64,000 nucleotides of DNA. It comes from Chlamydiota bacterium. GTDB taxonomy: Bacteria > Chlamydiota > Chlamydiia > Chlamydiales > JAAKFR01. Shown piece after piece: positions 7,690 to 50,844 of the stretch. The DNA is taken from NCBI GenBank assembly GCA_021772465.1, contig JAJFLX010000012.1, forward strand, positions 65,404 to 129,403, given 5' to 3'. The notes beneath the pieces were generated by a model. It saw only the letters and a list, made by a program, of their open reading frames with translations. It was not told the origin of the DNA and made no database searches. The translations under genes and the position numbers were made by a program. Every line of letters starts with the position of its first letter. Positions within the stretch are counted from its first letter, which is position 1.

Positions 7690-8590
7690 AACCCTTATCA
7701 TTTCAGAACTTGAGGCGGGAATGCGCCTCGACAAATGGCTCGCTAGCCACTACCAGGACTACTCACGGCAGTACTTTCAGTATCTGATTGAGAAAAAATT
7801 GGTGCTCGTAAACGGCTTGATTGCCAAAAAGGCTTATCGCCTTGAGATTGGCGATGAGATTGAAATCGAATTTGCCCTCACCCCTGAAATCACACTCGAG
7901 CCTGAAAACATTCCCCTTGATATTCTCTATGAAGATGACGCCTTGCTTGCGATCAATAAACCTGTTGATATGGTCGTTCATCCTGCGGCGGGAAATTGGA
8001 GTGGCACTTTTGTTCACGCTCTACTCTACCATTGCAACCATCTTCCCAAGGGGGAGACGCTCCGCCCTGGCATCGTCCACCGACTTGACAAACAGACAAC
8101 GGGTGTGTTGCTCGCGGCTAAGACAGAGAGAGCTCAATCAAAGCTCGTCGAATCATTTGCAGCGAGGCGGATTGAAAAAACCTACCTCGCCGTTTGTGTA
8201 GGCAACCCTAAAGAGCGCGTGATCGAAGGAAATATTGGACGCCACCCTGTTCATCGAAAGAAAATGGCTGTAATCAAAGAGGGGGGAAAGCCTGCGCGCA
8301 CTTTATGCAAAATTCTCCGTTTTTCCTCACCTTTGAGCCTTGTAGAGCTTGGGGCTGAAACGGGGAGAACCCACCAGCTTCGAGTCCATCTTCAATCGAT
8401 TGGCACCCCCATTTTGGGGGATCCGGTTTACGGGACCCCTTCGCTTAACAAAAAATATGGAGTGGAAAGACAGCTGCTTCACGCGCATCGACTGGTATTC
8501 GATCACCCTATCACAGGTGCTCACCTTGTGATCGAAGCTCCTCTGCCTGAAGACATGACATCGATTATAGAAAAATTCCTCAAGCCCTAA
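7682..8590 (+). CDS. rluD: RluA/RluD-family 23S rRNA pseudouridine synthase
   Basis: 302 aa with an S4-like N-domain (RLDKWLA) and the catalytic motif HRLDKQTTGVLLAAKT. Confidence 0.88.
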   Translation: MDETLIISELEAGMRLDKWLASHYQDYSRQYFQYLIEKKLVLVNGLIAKKAYRLEIGDEIEIEFALTPEITLEPENIPLDILYEDDALLAINKPVDMVVHPAAGNWSGTFVHALLYHCNHLPKGETLRPGIVHRLDKQTTGVLLAAKTERAQSKLVESFAARRIEKTYLAVCVGNPKERVIEGNIGRHPVHRKKMAVIKEGGKPARTLCKILRFSSPLSLVELGAETGRTHQLRVHLQSIGTPILGDPVYGTPSLNKKYGVERQLLHAHRLVFDHPITGAHLVIEAPLPEDMTSIIEKFLKP

Positions 8591-43844: not shown

Positions 43845-43901
43845 TTTTACATTCACTACATTCCGGTTCATGCATTGCATCATGAAAAAAGGAGTCATGT
43901 A

Positions 43902-44312
43902 ATGAAAAAATCCGATCTCGCTAAACTCGCCCTATTTGGCATCAGCGCGGGGCTCGTAGCCGGTGGCTGCCAACAAAAAGCGAACAAAAATGAAAGCCAC
44001 GATGCCAAGAAAAATGGCAACAATGCTGAGCAATCGGCGCAAGATATGGAAAGCTTTAAAGCCTCTCTCTCTCCAGAAGCTAAAAAACAATTTGACGAGC
44101 TCGATGCCAAGCACAAAATGATGGCTGTTGAGATGGCAAATCAAGAGTGCAAAGGGAAAAATAAGTGCTCTGGTATCGGGGGATGTGCGACGAAAGACAA
44201 CTCCTGCGCGGGCAAAAACAGCTGCAAAGGGAAGGGTGGACCTCCAGTAGACAGCCCAGAGAAGGCCGTAGAAGTGCAGTACAAAGCGCAAATGAATGGT
44301 GATAAGAAGTAA
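43902..44312 (+). CDS. Secreted Cys-rich peptide precursor (bufferin-like RiPP precursor candidate)
   Basis: AAGGAG lies 7 nt upstream of the ATG at 43902. Signal sequence MKKSDLAKLALFGISAGLVAGGC, Lys/Glu/Asn-rich linker, then ECKGKNKCSGIGGCATKDNSCAGKNSCKGKGG. It sits immediately upstream of the DUF692 gene. Confidence 0.7.
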   Translation: MKKSDLAKLALFGISAGLVAGGCQQKANKNESHDAKKNGNNAEQSAQDMESFKASLSPEAKKQFDELDAKHKMMAVEMANQECKGKNKCSGIGGCATKDNSCAGKNSCKGKGGPPVDSPEKAVEVQYKAQMNGDKK

Positions 44313-44354
44313 TTCTTGCTCTTTCGCGCGAAAAGTGAATAAGGTGTGTGTCAT

Positions 44355-45194
44355 ATGACACACGCCTTTGACATCACCAACCTTGGAATCGGCATTGGAC
44401 TGAGACCTGTTCACTATGATGAGATCTACTCTCTTGAGCCTGACATTGATTGGTTCGAGATCATCAGTGAAAACTACATGGTCGAGGGGGGCAAACCTCT
44501 CGAGCACCTCGATAAAATCCTCGAACGCTACCCTGTTGTGCAACACGGCGTCAACCTCGCGATAGGAAGCCCCACCCCTCTTGATTGGGACTACCTGCGG
44601 CGCCTCAAGAGGCTCGTGGCTCGCACGAAAACCCCATGGCTCTCTGATCATTTGAGCTGGGGACGCCTTCCTGGCGCTCACTTCCACGACCTGCTCCCCC
44701 TTCCCTACACGCAGGAAGTCATTGATTATGTCGCCGAAAGAGCGCGTATTGTCCAAGACTTTTTAGAGATCCCCTTTGCACTTGAAAATCTTTCTTCTTA
44801 TGTCGCCTACACAGACGATTCTATGCCCGAGTGGGAGTTCTACTCTCAAGTAGTTGAGAAGGGGGGAATTTTTATGATGCTCGATGTGAATAATATCTAC
44901 GTCTCGAGCCGCAATCATGGCTTTGATCCCATGACGTACATCAACTCCATACCCTTGAGCCGCGTCATTCAAATTCATTTAGCTGGGCACTCTGACCATG
45001 GGGACTATGTACTCGATACGCATGATCACCCTGTACGCGATGAGGTGTGGGCGCTCTATAGCGAGGTGTGGTCTCGAGCCCCTGTCTCGACCCTTTTAGA
45101 GTGGGATGACAATTTTGTGAGTTTTGAAGAGACCTGGGCCGAGGCGCTTAGGGCTAAGGCCTTCCAAAAGGAGCTTCATGAGTCGACTCTTTGA
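44355..45194 (+). CDS. DUF692 / MbnB-like multinuclear non-heme iron oxidase (MNIO)
   Basis: GIGLRPVHY, DWFEIISENY, HGVNL, SDHLSW, ALENLSSY, MLDVNNIYV, HLAGH, LDTHDH and LLEWD, the conserved TIM-barrel metal-ligand pattern of DUF692. AAGGTG lies 8 nt upstream of the ATG at 44355. Confidence 0.88.
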   Translation: MTHAFDITNLGIGIGLRPVHYDEIYSLEPDIDWFEIISENYMVEGGKPLEHLDKILERYPVVQHGVNLAIGSPTPLDWDYLRRLKRLVARTKTPWLSDHLSWGRLPGAHFHDLLPLPYTQEVIDYVAERARIVQDFLEIPFALENLSSYVAYTDDSMPEWEFYSQVVEKGGIFMMLDVNNIYVSSRNHGFDPMTYINSIPLSRVIQIHLAGHSDHGDYVLDTHDHPVRDEVWALYSEVWSRAPVSTLLEWDDNFVSFEETWAEALRAKAFQKELHESTL

Positions 45195-45927
45195 GACGCA
45201 AGTTTGGTTTGGATCTATCATTCGGCAGCCGCTTCAGACTGACCACTCGCTTCCAGAGTCCGTTTGTAGTGAGGCAGCTCACTTCATAGCGCCAAGTCCC
45301 ACACTCACTCCTCATAAACGGCTGGAAATCTACCACCAGCAGTACTGGTGGCGACTTCTCGACTGTTTGCAAAACAATTTTCCTTTTCTTACCAAGCTCC
45401 TTGGGGCTGATACGTTCAATCAAAAAATTGGAATCCCCTACCTCTCAGCCCACCCTCCCTCTGATTGGGCACTTTGCAAACTGGGGCAATCGCTCCCTTT
45501 GTGGTTAGCAAAGCAAAAAGAGCCCAGACGGCTGGTCGATGCTGCGCGCATCGATGCCGCCTCAGAACACGCTTTTTGGTGTGAGCAGAAACCCACGGCT
45601 GATTTTTCAGCCAAAAAACTCCACCTTCAACCCTTTGTTCATCTTTTCGAGTTGGAAGAGGATCTCTTTGAATATCGTGACCAACTGCTCCTAGGCAAAG
45701 AGATAAAAGTCGACTCTACCCCTTGCTACCGGGCGCTCTATCGAAACCGTGAAAGCCAGGTTCGGTGGAAACCTCTCACCCGAGTTGAGTACTCTCTTTT
45801 GCGGGCTTTTGAGTTAGGATCGAGTATTGAAGAGGCGTGCAGCTCTCTTCGACCGAGCAAAAAACTTGAAGAGTTGATTGTCATCTGGTTTCGTGAGTGG
45901 ACCTACCTGGGATGGTTTACCTCATGA
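45178..45927 (+). CDS. DUF2063-type partner protein of the MNIO enzyme
   Basis: 249 aa from the ATG at 45178, overlapping the DUF692 stop by 17 nt. Size, position and N-terminal pattern (LFETQVWFGSIIRQP...LEIYHQQYWWRL) fit DUF2063. Confidence 0.7.
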   Translation: MSRLFETQVWFGSIIRQPLQTDHSLPESVCSEAAHFIAPSPTLTPHKRLEIYHQQYWWRLLDCLQNNFPFLTKLLGADTFNQKIGIPYLSAHPPSDWALCKLGQSLPLWLAKQKEPRRLVDAARIDAASEHAFWCEQKPTADFSAKKLHLQPFVHLFELEEDLFEYRDQLLLGKEIKVDSTPCYRALYRNRESQVRWKPLTRVEYSLLRAFELGSSIEEACSSLRPSKKLEELIVIWFREWTYLGWFTS

Positions 45928-46178
45928 TACTCACACTTTTTCTCTCTTCTTTATTTGTTGGGGCAGCTTTAGGAGTCTTGCAGCGGATTCGCAAAAAAAG
46001 AAGAGTGCAGCGCGCAAGGGAAGTTCCTTTGCTCGAGGCGAGAGAGCGTATTGACCTACTTGAAAAACAGCTAGGTGAAACTAAAGAGCTTGCTCTTCGC
46101 GCCTTTTATGAAGAAGAGCTTCAGGTAGCCAAAAATCAACTCGCCCGCGCCCACCACCAGAAGAGATCAGCCTCCTAA
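45924..46178 (+). CDS. Small single-pass membrane protein with coiled-coil tail
   Basis: ATGA start/stop overlap with the DUF2063 gene. MILTLFLSSLFVGAALGVL TM segment followed by a basic stretch and a helical tail. Its last ~19 codons are duplicated at 49358-49420. Confidence 0.55.
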   Translation: MILTLFLSSLFVGAALGVLQRIRKKRRVQRAREVPLLEARERIDLLEKQLGETKELALRAFYEEELQVAKNQLARAHHQKRSAS

Positions 46179-46220
46179 TTAGGGTCAGAGAAATGAAGAA
46201 AAATGTGCTTGTAGGGATGG
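46121..46220 (+). repeat. Left copy of ~100-bp imperfect direct repeat bracketing the ankyrin/IS islet
   Basis: ttcaggtagccaaaaatcaactcgcccgcgcccaccaccagaagagatcagcctcctaa...cttgtagggatgg aligns with 49358-49465, mostly identical with a few small indels. Confidence 0.8.
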
Positions 46221-46303
46221 AAGTAGACTGCTGTTTTCATCTCGATATCATGCGCATGACAATCACTCCCGGAATATAAATTCGGCGAAAGAGGCTTGGG
46301 CTC

Positions 46304-47047
46304 TCAGTGAAGCATTGATATACCCTTACCAGTCATTAGTGTAGCGAATAGCTCAGCTACATCTCTCTCTTTATTTCTCTCGTCAGCCCTCAAAAGCAAG
46401 CCATGAATTTGACGCAGTGTTTTACTCTTAGCTCCCTCAACCTTTTGAATGACCGTTCTACCGTATCTGTCAGTAATTTGAGGATTCGCCCCCCACTCCA
46501 AAAGAGCCCTGACAACCGCGGCATATCCAAGTGTAGTTGCCCTCTGAAGAGCAGTATCGCCATTTTGACGCAAAGCATTGGGGTTGGCCCCTGCAGTTAA
46601 AAGAATCCTGGCAACTGAGGCATGTCCCTTTAGAGCTGCCACTATAAGAGCAGTATCGCCACCCTCATCCACAGCATTGGGGTCGGCCCCCCACTCCAAA
46701 AGAGCCCTGACAACCGCGGCATATCCAAGTGTAGTTGCCCTCTGAAGAGCAGTATCGCCACCCTCATCCACAGCATTGGGGTCGGCCCCTCCCTCTAAGA
46801 GAGCCCTGACATCCTCAGCATGACCACGGGTAACCGCCCAGAACAAAACTCCAGAAAGATCTCTATTCACCGGCTCTCTACCGGCCCCTCCCTCTTGCTG
46901 CACCTCAGGAGCTCCAGCGAGTACTCTAAGAGCAACCTCCGCTGTAGCAGCAGCGCCTTCATTTTCAGCATCGGGATTAGCCCCCTCTGCGACTCTATCA
47001 AATGTTTTCGATGGAATAGAACCTGATGAACCGGGAGCAGGAGTCAT
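46304..47047 (-). CDS. Ankyrin-repeat protein (paralog 1)
   Basis: 247 aa with about 5 ANK repeats (GDTALQRATTLGYAAVVRALLEWGADPNAVDE etc.). Its N- and C-termini are shared with the neighbouring paralog. Confidence 0.85.
   Translation of the reverse strand: MTPAPGSSGSIPSKTFDRVAEGANPDAENEGAAATAEVALRVLAGAPEVQQEGGAGREPVNRDLSGVLFWAVTRGHAEDVRALLEGGADPNAVDEGGDTALQRATTLGYAAVVRALLEWGADPNAVDEGGDTALIVAALKGHASVARILLTAGANPNALRQNGDTALQRATTLGYAAVVRALLEWGANPQITDRYGRTVIQKVEGAKSKTLRQIHGLLLRADERNKERDVAELFATLMTGKGISMLH
46488..46790 (-). repeat. Intragenic near-perfect repeats of ankyrin modules
   Basis: A 75-bp perfect repeat at 46488-46562 and 46686-46760 (198-bp offset). A further ~44-bp repeat at about 46647-46690 and 46746-46789 (99-bp offset). 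Confidence 0.85.
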
Positions 47048-47241
47048 AAAAGCACCTTTTTAATAAATTTAAACATCATTCTACAAAATATATTGTTTTT
47101 TTAGAAACTATAACAATTCTTGTTATGTAAAATCAGATGACAAAGAAGACCAAAGCGATTGATCAGAGATGCGACTCTATGTGCCTTCCCGTTTAACGCC
47201 GTATACCTTGCTTCCTTATCGACGAAAGAGGCTTCGGCTCT

Positions 47242-47853
47242 CTAGTGAAGCATTGATTTGCCCATGCCAGGCACTAATGCAGCAAATAGCTCAGCTACAT
47301 CTTTCTCTTTTTTTGCCTCCTCAAGAGTCCTTACAACTGAGGCATGTTCCGTCCGAACTGCCGCCATAAGAGCAGTTCTGCCAAACTCATCCACAGCATT
47401 GAGGTCAGCCCGACCCTCTAAGAGAGTCCTGACCACTGAGTTATATCCAAATTCAGTTGCAAGCATAAGAGCAGTATCGCCATCCTTATCCACAGCGTTG
47501 GGATCTGCTCCACGCTCCAAAAGAGCCTTGACAACTGAAGCATGTCCCTTTAGAGCTGCCACTATAAGAGCAGGATCACCATCCTCATCCACAGCATTAG
47601 GGTCGACCCCCTCATCTAAGAATTCCCTGACACTCCGAGCTGAGCCTCGGTCAATCGCCCAGAAAAAAGGTCCAGAAAGATCTCTATCTATCGACTCTCG
47701 ATTGACTCCTCTCGCTTGCGGCATAGCGAGTACTCTAAGAGCAACCTCAGCTGTAGCAGCAGCGCCTTCATCTACAGTATTGGGATCCACTCTTGAAGCA
47801 GAATCGCATACTTTCGATGGACTATAACCTGATAAACCAGGAGCGTGAGTCAC
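47242..47853 (-). CDS. Ankyrin-repeat protein (paralog 2)
   Basis: 203 aa. N-terminus MTHAPGLSGYSPSK...EGAAATAEVALRVLA and C-terminus KEKDVAELFAALVPGMGKSMLH parallel paralog 1. The 3' flanks are also homologous (46283 vs 47220 onward). Confidence 0.85.
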   Translation of the reverse strand: MTHAPGLSGYSPSKVCDSASRVDPNTVDEGAAATAEVALRVLAMPQARGVNRESIDRDLSGPFFWAIDRGSARSVREFLDEGVDPNAVDEDGDPALIVAALKGHASVVKALLERGADPNAVDKDGDTALMLATEFGYNSVVRTLLEGRADLNAVDEFGRTALMAAVRTEHASVVRTLEEAKKEKDVAELFAALVPGMGKSMLH

Positions 47854-47859
47854 AACAAT

Positions 47860-47980
47860 ACCTTTTTTTATTAAATTTAATAACTATTATATATAATATA
47901 GTGTTTTTACACAATTATAAAATTTATTAATATAAAATAAATTGTTTAATTAATTAAAGTTTATGTAAAAAATAAAAAAA
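47860..47980. other. Extremely AT-rich tract
   Basis: ttttttattaaatttaataactattatatataatatagtg...ttaattaattaaagtttatgtaaaaaataaaaaaa. It stands out against the surrounding sequence and lies between ankyrin paralog 2 and the IS relics. Confidence 0.8.
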
Positions 47981-47981
47981 C

Positions 47982-48140
47982 CTAGCCGAAGACGTCCTGG
48001 TATTCGACTCAACAGACTTCAAAGGGAAAGGAGGGTGGGAAGCGCATCAACACGGGGCCGGCAAGAAAAGAGCTTGGAGAAAATACATTTAGTTATCTGT
48101 CGACAAAGTCATGATATTTTTTTACCAGCGCAAGGTTTTA
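47982..48140 (+). mobile_element. IS5-family transposase relic (short internal fragment)
   Basis: Translates as LAEDVLVFDSTDFKGKGGWEAHQHGAGKKRAWRKYI*LSVD. This resembles the DSTG...GEWK.RKHG..KRR.WRKLH..VD block around the first catalytic Asp of IS5-type DDE transposases. It is stop-interrupted and truncated at both ends. Confidence 0.6.
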
Positions 48141-48366
48141 TCCTAGCTTTACAAAAATCCTAAATCTTCGGGACTAGGGAGTTCAAGAACCTGTTTCAAC
48201 CACTCATAACATGCTATGCCAAAGTCTTCTATGTCTATCTAGCATTCAGAACCACAGACAACCACTAGAATCGAAATGATGAGGATGTTACCACGTTGGT
48301 GCAGTTCTTTACGCTCTAGCCTTGGGTCGGGCATCTCTGCAAATAAGCCGATAAACTGAATTTGAC
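48141..48366 (-). mobile_element. ISAs1-family transposase N-terminal relic
   Basis: Reverse strand translates as LFAEMPDPRLERKELHQRGNILIISILVVVCGSEC*IDIEDFGIACYEWLKQVLELPSPEDLGF. This matches the ISAs1/H-repeat N-domain pattern (F..L.DPR...K.H.L.DIL.I...AV.CGA..W..IE.FG....WL...L.L). It carries an in-frame stop and lacks the DDE domain. Confidence 0.65.
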
Positions 48367-48464
48367 ATCCACAATCACCTCGATTTAAGGCGACGAGCAC
48401 CTACTGTCGGGGTCCTATCAATCAATTGGAAATTGTAATGCGTTTTCCCTGATGTAAAAGGTCT

Positions 48465-49295
48465 CTAATTGATTGTCTTGGTCAATTCAGCAAGAGCTGA
48501 CCATTTCGTTTCAAACTCTTGCTCGCTAATTTGTGGCGAGGGGTAAAGATTCGCACCAAGGTAATGAATTCCATCATACTGAATAAGTGGATTATATTTA
48601 TTCAGGGACTCTTCTACATTTTTTAAATTATCTTCACGATCGTCTATGAATATCACACGCTTGGGGTGCAAGCCGGCGATTTGCAAGAAGCGAATCAATA
48701 CATCCCCTTTTGGACAGACTGGTCCATTGGCAAACAAAATGCCCTGCTTATATGAAGAATAATTACCTCGATAAGAGGGGAGGTCACAAAAGGTTTGATT
48801 TTCTTGCATTGGAGCCGACGAGGTAAAGTCAATTCCAAGCTTACATAGGCGATTAATTTTCCACGCTTCCAGACTTGCAATATTTTTTAATGGACCCGTG
48901 AGGTTAGAAGTTAAAGCAATGGTGGGTACGCTGTTTTCAATTAATCTGCTGAGAAGGGTAGGAGTATAGGTGTCGACTAGAATCGAATCTGAGTTGAGCA
49001 GCATCAAAGTTAAGAAAAGATTTTTTTTCTCCTGAGGAATGGATTGGGAAATCCGTTTTGCCACATTTCGAAAATGCACCATATTGGCCATTTGAAATGC
49101 TGGATCGCTTGGTTGTATCAAGACCATATCAATGTCAAAAATTATTAAGGTGTCACAATCTGCGTTCGCAAAATAACGTGTAACTTCTTCCATCGTATTT
49201 ACCTTATTGATTGTAGCGTAGCCGCTTGCAAAAGAACACAATATGACAATCGAAAAATAAAGCAACACTTTTGAAGTAAATTTTCTGTCACGCAT
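48465..49295 (-). CDS. Secreted HAD-superfamily-like protein (DUF2608-like)
   Basis: Probable start MRDRKFTSKVLLYFSIVILCSFASG (signal/TM). HAD motif I-like LIIFDIDMVL and motif IV-like VIFIDDREDN. It is visibly AT-richer than backbone genes. My recollection of this family as Legionella/Coxiella-type is tentative. Confidence 0.6.
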   Translation of the reverse strand: MRDRKFTSKVLLYFSIVILCSFASGYATINKVNTMEEVTRYFANADCDTLIIFDIDMVLIQPSDPAFQMANMVHFRNVAKRISQSIPQEKKNLFLTLMLLNSDSILVDTYTPTLLSRLIENSVPTIALTSNLTGPLKNIASLEAWKINRLCKLGIDFTSSAPMQENQTFCDLPSYRGNYSSYKQGILFANGPVCPKGDVLIRFLQIAGLHPKRVIFIDDREDNLKNVEESLNKYNPLIQYDGIHYLGANLYPSPQISEQEFETKWSALAELTKTIN

Positions 49296-49357
49296 TTCAA
49301 TCCTTTTTAAAGGCTGTGGGAGAGCCTGCGCCGAGCATAGCTGGAGCTGCAATGTTT

Positions 49358-49465
49358 TTCAAATAGCCAAAAATCAGCTCGCCCGCGCCCACTACCAGAA
49401 AAAATCAGCCCCTTAAGTCAGGGTCTTAAGAGAGAAACGAAGAAAATTCTGTCTTGTAGGAATGG
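49358..49465 (+). repeat. Right copy of the direct repeat bracketing the islet
   Basis: tttcaaatagccaaaaatcagctcgcccgcgcccactaccagaaaaaatcagccccttaa...cttgtaggaatgg. It keeps the reading frame QIAKNQLARAHYQKKSAP*, against QVAKNQLARAHHQKRSAS* in the intact gene. Confidence 0.8.
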
Positions 49466-49482
49466 GCACAATAAGATATAAT
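49454..49482 (+). promoter_or_regulatory. Candidate promoter TTGTAG-17 nt-TATAAT for the 49521 gene
   Basis: Read directly. The -10 lies about 38 nt upstream of the ATG at 49521. Confidence 0.3.
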
Positions 49483-49520
49483 AAAAATAAGTGAAATACT
49501 GAAGATTTAAGGCTTTAAGA

Positions 49521-49817
49521 ATGAACTGGGGTAATGTTCTCCCAATCTTGTCGATTCTCGTCCTTATCCTCGTAGGGCTATGGGCGATTATGCGCAATAT
49601 TAAAGAAGAAATTCGCTCTGTAAAAATAGATCTGGATCATAAAATAGACAGATTAGATCACAAAATTGATGTGACTAAAGCAGAACTAAAAGAAGACATC
49701 AAAGTCGTGCGGGCAGATATACGCTCTCTTCAAGAAATGCTTTGGGTAAGCATTGTTGGCCAGAAACCAGAATTTTACAAGCAACCCAAAGATCAACAAC
49801 AAAACGAAAAAATTTAG
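49521..49817 (+). CDS. Small single-pass membrane protein with coiled-coil region
   Basis: 98 aa. TM segment VLPILSILVLILVGLWAI followed by repetitive KIDLDHKIDRLDHKIDV heptad-like sequence. Confidence 0.5.
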   Translation: MNWGNVLPILSILVLILVGLWAIMRNIKEEIRSVKIDLDHKIDRLDHKIDVTKAELKEDIKVVRADIRSLQEMLWVSIVGQKPEFYKQPKDQQQNEKI

Positions 49818-49839
49818 GTCGCTAGTCGCTAGACCCCAA

Positions 49840-50844
49840 TTAGAGATACTCTTCTTTTGTAGCTCGCTGCAGCAGAAATTTCACCGCATCGTGGGGGCTC
49901 AGTTTCTCGTAGACAACACGGTAGACCGCCTCAGTAATAGGAAGCTCTAACCCCTCTTTTCCAGCTATTTGCATCGCAGAAAGACACGTATAAGTACCCT
50001 CCACAACCATGCCGATCTTCTCTTTGGCCTTTTCAGGCTCTAACCCTTCAGCAATCATTTGACCAAAACGGTAGTTGCGACTCATCGTTGAAAGGCAAGT
50101 CACACAAAGATCGCCCATTCCAGCTAATCCATTGAGAGTATCTGGATTACACCCCTTCGTAATGGCAAGCTTCCTTATCTCGTGCAAGCCCCGAGTCATA
50201 AGAGCTGCCTTGGCATTATCCCCAAACCCAAGCCCATCTGATACACCACAAGCAATAGCAATGATGTTTTTTAAAGCGCCCCCTAGCTCAACGCCGTTGA
50301 TGTCTGAGTTAGGGTAAACGCGAAATGTCGGTGTGGAGAACGTTTCGTGGATGAGAGCCATCACTTTTGCATCATAGGCGCTGCATACAACAGAGCTCGG
50401 CAGCCCCCCCAGCACCTCTTGAGCAATAGAAGGGCCACTGAGACACCCGATCTGTTTTTTGTGTTTTTCACCGAGCACTTCAATCGCAACATCAGTGAGA
50501 AGCAGACCGGTATTTTGCTCAATCCCTTTTGAGGTCAAAACAATAGGACAACTTGGGACTCCGCGCTCTTTGATATGCTGAAAAACTTGACGGATGCCAG
50601 CAGAGGTCACCCCTTCTACTATAAGATCTTTACCCTGGATAACCTTTGAGAGATCTGTTGAAAATGAGAGCGAAGGAGGTGCAGGAAAACCCTTCAGAGT
50701 AGGGTGCTCACGCTTCTCATTCATGTGATCGACCGCCCGCTCATCGATGCTCCAACATTCTACTGTATACCCCTTTGAAGCGAGCAAAGAGGCAAGCGTA
50801 TAACCCCAAGCGCCCGCTCCTAAATAGCCTATTTTTTTAACCAT
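49840..50844 (-). CDS. gpsA: NAD(P)H-dependent glycerol-3-phosphate dehydrogenase
   Basis: MVKKIGYLGAGAWG Rossmann start (ATG 50844), with GALKNIIAIA and GLAGMGDL motifs. The ORF track start at 50859 would overlap the upstream gene. Confidence 0.9.
   Translation of the reverse strand: MVKKIGYLGAGAWGYTLASLLASKGYTVECWSIDERAVDHMNEKREHPTLKGFPAPPSLSFSTDLSKVIQGKDLIVEGVTSAGIRQVFQHIKERGVPSCPIVLTSKGIEQNTGLLLTDVAIEVLGEKHKKQIGCLSGPSIAQEVLGGLPSSVVCSAYDAKVMALIHETFSTPTFRVYPNSDINGVELGGALKNIIAIACGVSDGLGFGDNAKAALMTRGLHEIRKLAITKGCNPDTLNGLAGMGDLCVTCLSTMSRNYRFGQMIAEGLEPEKAKEKIGMVVEGTYTCLSAMQIAGKEGLELPITEAVYRVVYEKLSPHDAVKFLLQRATKEEYL

Follow-up and report, generated by a model that had tools for sequence, protein, structure and literature searches.

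In a 64,000-nucleotide (nt) stretch of a Chlamydiota bacterium contig (JAJFLX010000012.1 of assembly GCA_021772465.1, positions 65,404 to 129,403; here called the window), a 3.2-kb block of accessory genes is bracketed by two diverged copies of a direct repeat of about 105 nt. The left copy includes the 3′ end of a small transmembrane (TM) open reading frame (ORF). The right copy is an orphan fragment that runs into the promoter of a gene for a 98-amino-acid (aa) protein. We tentatively favor the reading that a circular element carrying its own copy of the target integrated here long ago, either by site-specific recombination or by a single homologous crossover, and that its recombinase was later lost. 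The repeat copies and the two genes that they touch are as follows.

45924-46178, plus strand: small TM/coiled-coil ORF, 84 aa counted from this ATG (88 aa as called, P0001)
46120-46223, plus strand: left repeat copy, the final 59 nt of the small TM ORF with about 45 nt after its stop codon
49358-49468, plus strand: right repeat copy, an orphan 3′ fragment contiguous with the promoter of the 98-aa gene
49444-49817, plus strand: 98-aa TM/coiled-coil gene with its promoter (TTGTAG, 17 nt, TATAAT at 49476)

A discrete, diverged direct repeat

An initial annotation of this DNA had read direct repeats of about 100 bp at 46121 and 49358 by eye and had allowed that a computed alignment might prove much weaker. 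That fear was not borne out. Self-BLAST of the whole window aligned 46120-46220 with 49358-49465 at 81.5% identity over 108 columns (E=1.5e-18). A repeat finder returned an ungapped core of 59 nt at 86% identity (46120-46178 and 49358-49416), and a MAFFT alignment confined the two indels, of 6 nt and 1 nt, to the noncoding part of the repeat. With a homologous outgroup locus (L118, described below), the left copy could be extended by about 2 to 3 nt, to about 46223. The 5′ edge of the repeat is sharp and lies inside the small TM ORF, and its 3′ end lies about 45 nt beyond the ORF stop codon.

Local alignments of the flanks were scored against shuffled sequence. Upstream (62 nt) and downstream (80 nt) of the copies, similarity was no better than in the shuffles, no residual gene-body similarity was present upstream of the right copy (local score of 7 versus a shuffle mean of 6.6), and no similarity was detected between 46224 onward and 49469 onward. 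Since nothing above chance was found in the flanks, the repeat is a discrete unit of about 105 nt. Tandem duplication of the whole region, an origin that the initial annotation had raised against its own reading, thus finds no counterpart: neither the flank alignments nor self-BLAST, which returned nothing else, showed similarity past this unit on either side.

The left copy is the genuine 3′ end of the ORF at 45924-46178, reading ...LQVAKNQLARAHHQKRSAS before the stop codon. As had been proposed, the right copy keeps the same frame and stop codon (...FQIAKNQLARAHYQKKSAP before the stop) with no gene body; it has no start codon, and an in-frame stop lies at 49276. The coding parts of the two copies differ by 4 synonymous and 5 nonsynonymous changes, all nine of them transitions (P=0.12-0.37, in a test without power).

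Several other identities for the repeat were rejected. It is not part of an insertion sequence (IS), a miniature inverted-repeat transposable element, or another multicopy element, as there was no third copy in the window or in the 125 loci fetched. A structured RNA was ruled out (no Rfam match at E<=1; fold z-scores of -0.9 to +2.6), as was a terminator: there is no stable fold, and a hairpin followed by a T-run occurs in the right copy alone, on the minus strand.

An independent Logan assembly of run SRR15505517 covers much of the locus. One contig (L104) equals window positions 45419-46517 at 100% identity and spans the left junction; another (L123) is identical to 47544-49361. The latter terminates 4 nt inside the right repeat, and the 98-aa gene is missing from the Logan assembly; low coverage is the likely cause, with strain heterogeneity at this junction as another candidate.

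The repeat as a probable duplicated gene junction

The composition of the repeat was clarified by the 98-aa gene, which belongs to a small family. Its best relative (80% aa identity) is in GCA_020440555.1 (L118), where it lies between kpsF-like and rsmB genes, a context unrelated to that in the window. The gene and its promoter form a module of about 370 nt that is 81% identical in nucleotides between window positions 49444-49810 and L118 positions 7856-8233, and the nucleotide homology to L118 begins within the right repeat. In a three-way alignment with L118, the repeat ends in ~25 nt (GAAAATGTGTCTTGTAGGAATGGAA) that form the start of this gene's conserved promoter region, with the -35 box TTGTAG. 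The duplication breakpoint lies between the -35 and -10 boxes of this promoter.

The outgroup also allowed changes to be assigned to each copy. L118-like states at TGTG and GGAA are kept in the left copy and lost in the right, and those at the T of GTCTTG and at GGAATGG are kept in the right copy and lost in the left. Because each copy holds ancestral states that the other has lost, both would descend from one junction of the small TM ORF with the 98-aa gene. Judged from its sequence, then, the repeat is a duplicate of this junction and has the geometry of a target duplication, and the two genes were probably once adjacent. They are not paralogs of each other, as no BLASTP alignment was obtained. 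Farther homologs of the 98-aa gene adjoin type III secretion Effector_1 genes (L119).

Gene content and composition of the islet

The following features lie between the repeat copies (GC3, G+C content at third codon positions; HAD, haloacid dehalogenase).

46304-47047, minus strand: ankyrin-repeat gene 1, 247 aa (Pfam Ank, E=3e-26; GC3 of 0.39)
47242-47853, minus strand: ankyrin-repeat gene 2, 203 aa (Pfam), tandem paralog of gene 1
47860-47980, no strand: extreme AT tract, the upstream/promoter region of ankyrin gene 2, with a partial duplicate at 47057-47100
48060-48420, minus strand: ISAs1-type transposase relic, N-terminal part (DDE_Tnp_1_assoc, PF13808, E=8e-6)
48465-49295, minus strand: DUF2608 gene, 276 aa, with a signal-peptide-like N terminus (Pfam; weak HAD-motif similarity)

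This inventory agrees with the initial annotation in its two ankyrin genes, AT tract, and HAD-like gene, here assigned to DUF2608; the two transposase relics named there are a single ISAs1-type relic. The relic, at about 48060-48420 on the minus strand, reads FAEMPDPRLERKELH...IDIEDFG. It has stop codons and an internal deletion and is missing its DDE domain. Ankyrin genes 1 and 2 are tandem paralogs of about 72% nucleotide identity, and the duplicated unit (46282-47133 versus 47219-47938) takes in the 3′ flank and the AT-rich promoter. Both ankyrin proteins also share an N-terminal nonankyrin region and a C-terminal tail.

The DNA between the repeat copies is accessory, as had been claimed. 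This conclusion follows from the ISAs1 relic, from the varying contexts of DUF2608 genes, and from base composition. The DUF2608 family is widespread in Chlamydiae, and the ortholog sits in a different context in every relative examined. Genes of the insert have a GC3 of 0.35-0.39 versus 0.51 for the backbone (0.51 +/- 0.03 in 30 backbone genes). The DUF2608 gene was rejected as the carrier of the right repeat, since its flanks are unrelated in three relatives and homology ends at the gene ends. A plasmid or phage origin was likewise rejected, as 45900-49850 had no DNA match to plasmids or phages.

The islet lies in a variable interval

The DNA on either side of the islet had been taken for conserved chlamydial backbone, and this did not hold. 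Relatives carry DUF2063, LemA, and M48 peptidase genes and then, in some cases after one more gene, gpsA. In four fetched loci (L002, L081, L083, and L084), the order is Cys-rich precursor-DUF692-DUF2063-LemA-M48 peptidase, and in two of them (L002 and L083) the M48 peptidase gene is followed by one further gene and then gpsA. LemA and the M48 peptidase are absent from the window. The small TM ORF begins in overlap with the stop codon of DUF2063 and occupies the position held by LemA in relatives. Its product is an orphan, with itself as the sole match among 5.8 billion protein clusters. A LemA remnant was ruled out (hhalign probability of 0.6%).

The closest relatives, 75-81% identical in protein in scans with gpsA (genome collection) and DUF692 (metagenomes), fill this interval otherwise, with LemA, M48 peptidase, AAA ATPase, or OsmC-like genes. 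Each window protein tested was a singleton at 90% identity clustering, and exact-protein look-ups matched fragments of the same sample only. The whole stretch of 45924-49839, from the small TM ORF through the islet and the right repeat to the 98-aa gene, is nonsyntenic, and the GC3 values of its five genes are 0.42, 0.39, 0.35, 0.39, and 0.37. A composition profile across 45-50 kb, which the initial annotation had suggested, therefore sets the insert genes apart from the backbone but not from their immediate neighbors: the flanking small TM ORF (0.42; z=-3.1 versus the backbone) and 98-aa gene (0.37) are equally atypical. The low GC3 of these two genes places the repeats within a 3.9-kb variable interval and not at the edges of the backbone.

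Two further observations concern the surroundings of this interval. A bufferin-type operon for a ribosomally synthesized and posttranslationally modified peptide lies at window positions 43875-45927 and is kept in chlamydial relatives, where LemA and M48 peptidase genes then follow. It comprises a Cys-rich BufA2-like precursor (E=6e-9, below the cutoff), a BufB MNIO maturase (321 bits versus a cutoff of 310), and a DUF2063/HvfC-like partner. In a distant relative (L015, gpsA 53% identical), positions 13705-16739 hold a DUF2608-epimerase fragment fusion, a toxin-antitoxin-like pair, and an IS transposase. These genes lie about 3 kb downstream of gpsA and suggest that the gpsA-downstream region is a recurrent hot spot.

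A second repeat-bracketed islet at smc

The initial annotation pointed to the same pattern at the smc locus of the window, and this was confirmed. The features there are as follows.

22005-22258, minus strand: displaced smc 3′ end (copy B, 22005-22191) and a 74-nt piece C (22185-22258), joined at the 7-nt sequence CTCGATG
22287-23469, minus strand: YhcG/DUF1016 PD-(D/E)XK nuclease gene with one frameshift, and an integrase relic, the remains of an integrase-YhcG element
23544-23738, minus strand: functional smc 3′ end, the gene-proximal repeat copy (self-BLAST)

By self-BLAST, 23549-23735 and 22005-22191 are 88.8% identical. Piece C (74 nt, 22185-22258) is 100% identical to 23607-23680. In addition to the repeat, an integrase relic was found at 23349-23469. 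These ~120 nt encode the last ~40 codons (...YSHIDVQV...FSDQISEQILK...) and lie directly upstream of YhcG. Together, the integrase relic and YhcG identify the smc islet as a decayed integrative element.

Intact counterparts of this element were found elsewhere. YhcG homologs are 75-87% identical in protein across Chlamydiae, a higher conservation than that of gpsA when the window is compared with its closest relative. In every fetched context (L111-L117 and L124; five related contexts), a 356-aa tyrosine integrase directly precedes and overlaps YhcG. Three of these contexts (L112, L115, and L117) come right after tRNA-Met, and one identical element occurs in two contexts (L111 versus L112), with the tRNA-Met 3′ half carried along, as seen in L111. 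Integrase-YhcG elements are widespread in Chlamydiae, mostly after tRNA-Met. At L115 3008-3776, three tRNA-Met fragment repeats and an intact tRNA-Met lie upstream of the integrase, an array apparently left over from repeated rounds of integration.

Between the two smc ends there are 12 synonymous and 6 nonsynonymous changes (synonymous divergence [pS] of 0.31, nonsynonymous divergence [pN] of 0.04, and pN/pS of 0.15). Neutral drift of both ends has a P of about 1e-4 to 2e-3, and copy B as an in-place pseudogene copy has a P of about 0.01-0.04, allowing for transition bias. This pattern fits ends that evolved as working genes in different lineages, one of which would have been imported. An attempt to tell the native copy by GC at the differing third positions (8/11 versus 3/11, counted by eye) was not significant and was dropped.

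A proposed mechanism and its likeness to known systems

In the reading that we tentatively favor, the insert (46224-49357) would be old, horizontally acquired DNA consisting of the ankyrin gene pair, the IS relic, and the DUF2608 gene. The insertion point would be the junction of the small TM ORF with the 98-aa gene, two small accessory genes that would once have been adjacent, and the ~105-nt repeat would be the duplicated target: the final 59 nt of the ORF and the ~45-nt spacer that follows, up to the -35 box. A circular element with its own copy of this target may have integrated via a site-specific recombinase or a single homologous (Campbell-type) crossover. The resident gene would have kept one end and the displaced end would have been left at the far side, as for e14 in icd, with the recombinase and most of the element deleted afterwards. 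The former adjacency of the two genes, the circular intermediate, and the loss of the recombinase at 46-49.5 kb are what we infer. Integration of a circular element is favored because of the geometry of the repeat, the accessory, IS-scarred content, the parallel at smc, and a synonymous divergence that is equal in both repeat pairs (0.31 at smc and 0.32 at the small TM ORF). The last point is only suggestive of one mechanism at both loci.

Several results weigh against this proposal. A tblastn search of 46-49.5 kb with three chlamydial tyrosine integrases as queries and a Pfam search of all ORFs, which matched only Ank, DUF2608, and the ISAs1 N-terminal relic, revealed no trace of an integrase, excisionase, or other recombinase, in agreement with the earlier remark that no integrase remains there. 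The small TM ORF is a poor candidate for an att site because it is an orphan with atypical GC3, and it is unlikely to be a dedicated att target. No empty site was seen; the interval holds different genes in relatives, the closest of which has a gpsA of about 79% protein identity. The nearest approach to one is the L118 alignment, which places the distal ~25 nt of the repeat in the promoter region of the 98-aa gene and lends an empty site indirect support. At the 5′ edge of the repeat, the copies share an identical block of just 4 nt (TTCA), which is no convincing core. The parallel at smc is itself imperfect. Piece C is out of register to copy B, and its joint, CTCGATG, is present twice in the smc end, which the proposal leaves unexplained. 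There is also no tRNA near 22-23.7 kb, though the integrase-YhcG family normally carries the tRNA-Met 3′ half, and for this reason the smc case is not a textbook att event. The 46-49.5-kb islet has no gene or sequence in common with the integrase-YhcG elements.

The closest known likeness is to e14 (and phage 21) in icd of Escherichia coli, where, as here, an intact gene is followed by an element and a far-side orphan C-terminal fragment (e14/icd/icdC architecture: PMC13626634, citing Hill et al. 1989). At e14 the ends of icd and icdC show mostly synonymous or conservative differences (PMC13626634). The 3′ end of the gene extends into the element; the differences between the ends match those of the smc pair, and the geometry matches that of the 46/49-kb pair. 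The two systems also differ. Whereas e14 keeps its integrase and excises, the 46-49.5-kb islet has no recombinase. Moreover, icd is a conserved core gene, while the small TM ORF is an orphan in an already variable interval, and, unlike at icd, the 46/49-kb repeat continues beyond the stop codon and reaches the promoter of the gene that follows.

In genomic islands that target tRNA genes, a tyrosine integrase adjoins the tRNA, and the distal direct repeat is a tRNA 3′ fragment that has been displaced; the integrase-YhcG elements at tRNA-Met in chlamydial relatives (L112, L115, and L117) belong to this class. The likeness lies in an insert flanked by direct repeats of the 3′ end of a gene. The smc islet resembles these elements further in both content and order, with an integrase relic preceding the same YhcG (74% nucleotide and 80-87% aa identity); unlike them, the YhcG copy of the window sits at smc with no tRNA. 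A Campbell-type crossover, or homology-facilitated illegitimate recombination of foreign DNA bearing a homologous anchor, produces or uses homology to the recipient and explains both a xenologous gene end and the 7-nt joint at smc. It is a mechanism and not a family, and in the 46/49-kb sequence it is indistinguishable from site-specific integration; homology there today amounts to just ~105 nt at 81% identity. The ISAs1-type relic inside the islet recalls a composite transposon or IS insertion, but it is a single truncated internal relic, the edges have no inverted repeats, and the duplication is ~105 nt long. Target duplications of ISAs1 elements are about 8-10 bp, not ~105 bp.

The arrangement had been described as an attL/attR-like footprint, and this description stands in part. 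The duplicated-target geometry is present, in that the flanking direct repeats consist of a copy continuous with the intact gene and an orphaned 3′ fragment. A recombinase gene or relic next to the repeat is not, although one was found at smc (23349-23469), and the target is not a conserved gene, as the small TM protein has no homologs in the protein clusters searched. Since the repeat geometry is that of an att-type scar but the recombinase and the conserved target are both missing, the locus should be said to work like such a scar and should not be filed as a member of the family.

Alternative explanations

The repeat could also have arisen by duplication of the target in place, with no recombinase, if a template switch or a microhomology-mediated illegitimate event captured foreign or ectopic DNA. 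Copying would have resumed about 105 nt upstream, leaving copies that were identical at first and have since diverged by about 19%. We consider this account unlikely, though it has several observations in its favor. No recombinase trace is present at the locus, and the region is prone to local duplication, as seen in the tandem ankyrin unit and in the out-of-register smc piece at CTCGATG. By comparison with L118, both copies carry derived changes of their own, as expected for drift from one ancestor, and the IS relic is heavily decayed, in keeping with an old event. Set against these are the microhomology at the edges of the 46/49-kb repeat, which is no longer than 4 nt, and the ankyrin paralogs, which at 28% divergence would predate the repeat (19%) if everything had happened in place. 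At smc, in-place duplication is disfavored by the excess of synonymous changes (P about 0.01-0.04), and the insert there is a known integrative element. We regard as more doubtful still the proposal that in this chlamydial lineage accessory DNA was repeatedly imported together with a xenologous copy of the 3′ end of the recipient gene and recombined through short homology, both scars, alike in their synonymous divergence of about 0.31, coming from one donor lineage. If this were true, the result would be a hybrid resident gene and a displaced old end, produced by Campbell-type or secondary-site integration, and integrase-YhcG elements would be able to use, in place of tRNA-Met, the end of an essential protein gene (smc).

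Two other histories are improbable. In one, all of 45924-49839 would be a single mosaic replacement of an ancestral LemA-M48 segment, with the repeat inherited from the donor. Relatives do hold LemA and M48 peptidase genes in this interval where the window has neither, and all five genes of the interval have a low GC3 (0.35-0.42). The 98-aa module and DUF2608, however, are found separately and in unrelated contexts elsewhere, which argues for piecemeal assembly, and a mosaic replacement would merely move the insertion to the donor genome and leave the repeat unexplained. In the other, marginally the less probable of the two, the right copy would be the last remnant of a full paralog of the small TM ORF, made by segmental duplication, whose body was deleted or overwritten when the DUF2608 gene and the IS arrived; the repeats would then mark no insertion. 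The frame and stop codon kept in the right copy would suit such a paralog, and tandem gene duplication is known in the interval from the ankyrin pair. But gene-body similarity upstream of the right copy is at the shuffle level, and the sequences following the two copies are dissimilar. In addition, the left copy bears a piece of the 98-aa gene promoter, which duplication of the junction explains and simple paralog decay does not. Finally, chance similarity or an assembly artifact can be given almost no weight. The genome may be metagenome assembled, and contig L123 ends just inside the right copy, but the E value of the repeat match speaks against chance, copies that are 19% divergent would be neither collapsed nor created by an assembler, and the independent assembly reproduces both the left junction and the sequence that leads up to the right copy.

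Implications for chlamydial gene exchange

These results do not overturn current understanding: the locus is a degraded accessory islet, the ordinary scar of an old gene acquisition. If the integration of a circular element is the true history, the islet would be one more case of environmental chlamydiae turning over small effector-type genes (ankyrin and DUF2608) at hot spots, and the DUF2063-gpsA interval would be marked as such a hot spot. The smc locus is the more informative of the two, as it indicates that a widespread, very well-conserved integrase-YhcG element of Chlamydiae can come to lie at the 3′ end of an essential gene. The scar that it left contains a displaced, apparently once-functional gene end, which offers a handle on DNA exchange between chlamydial lineages.

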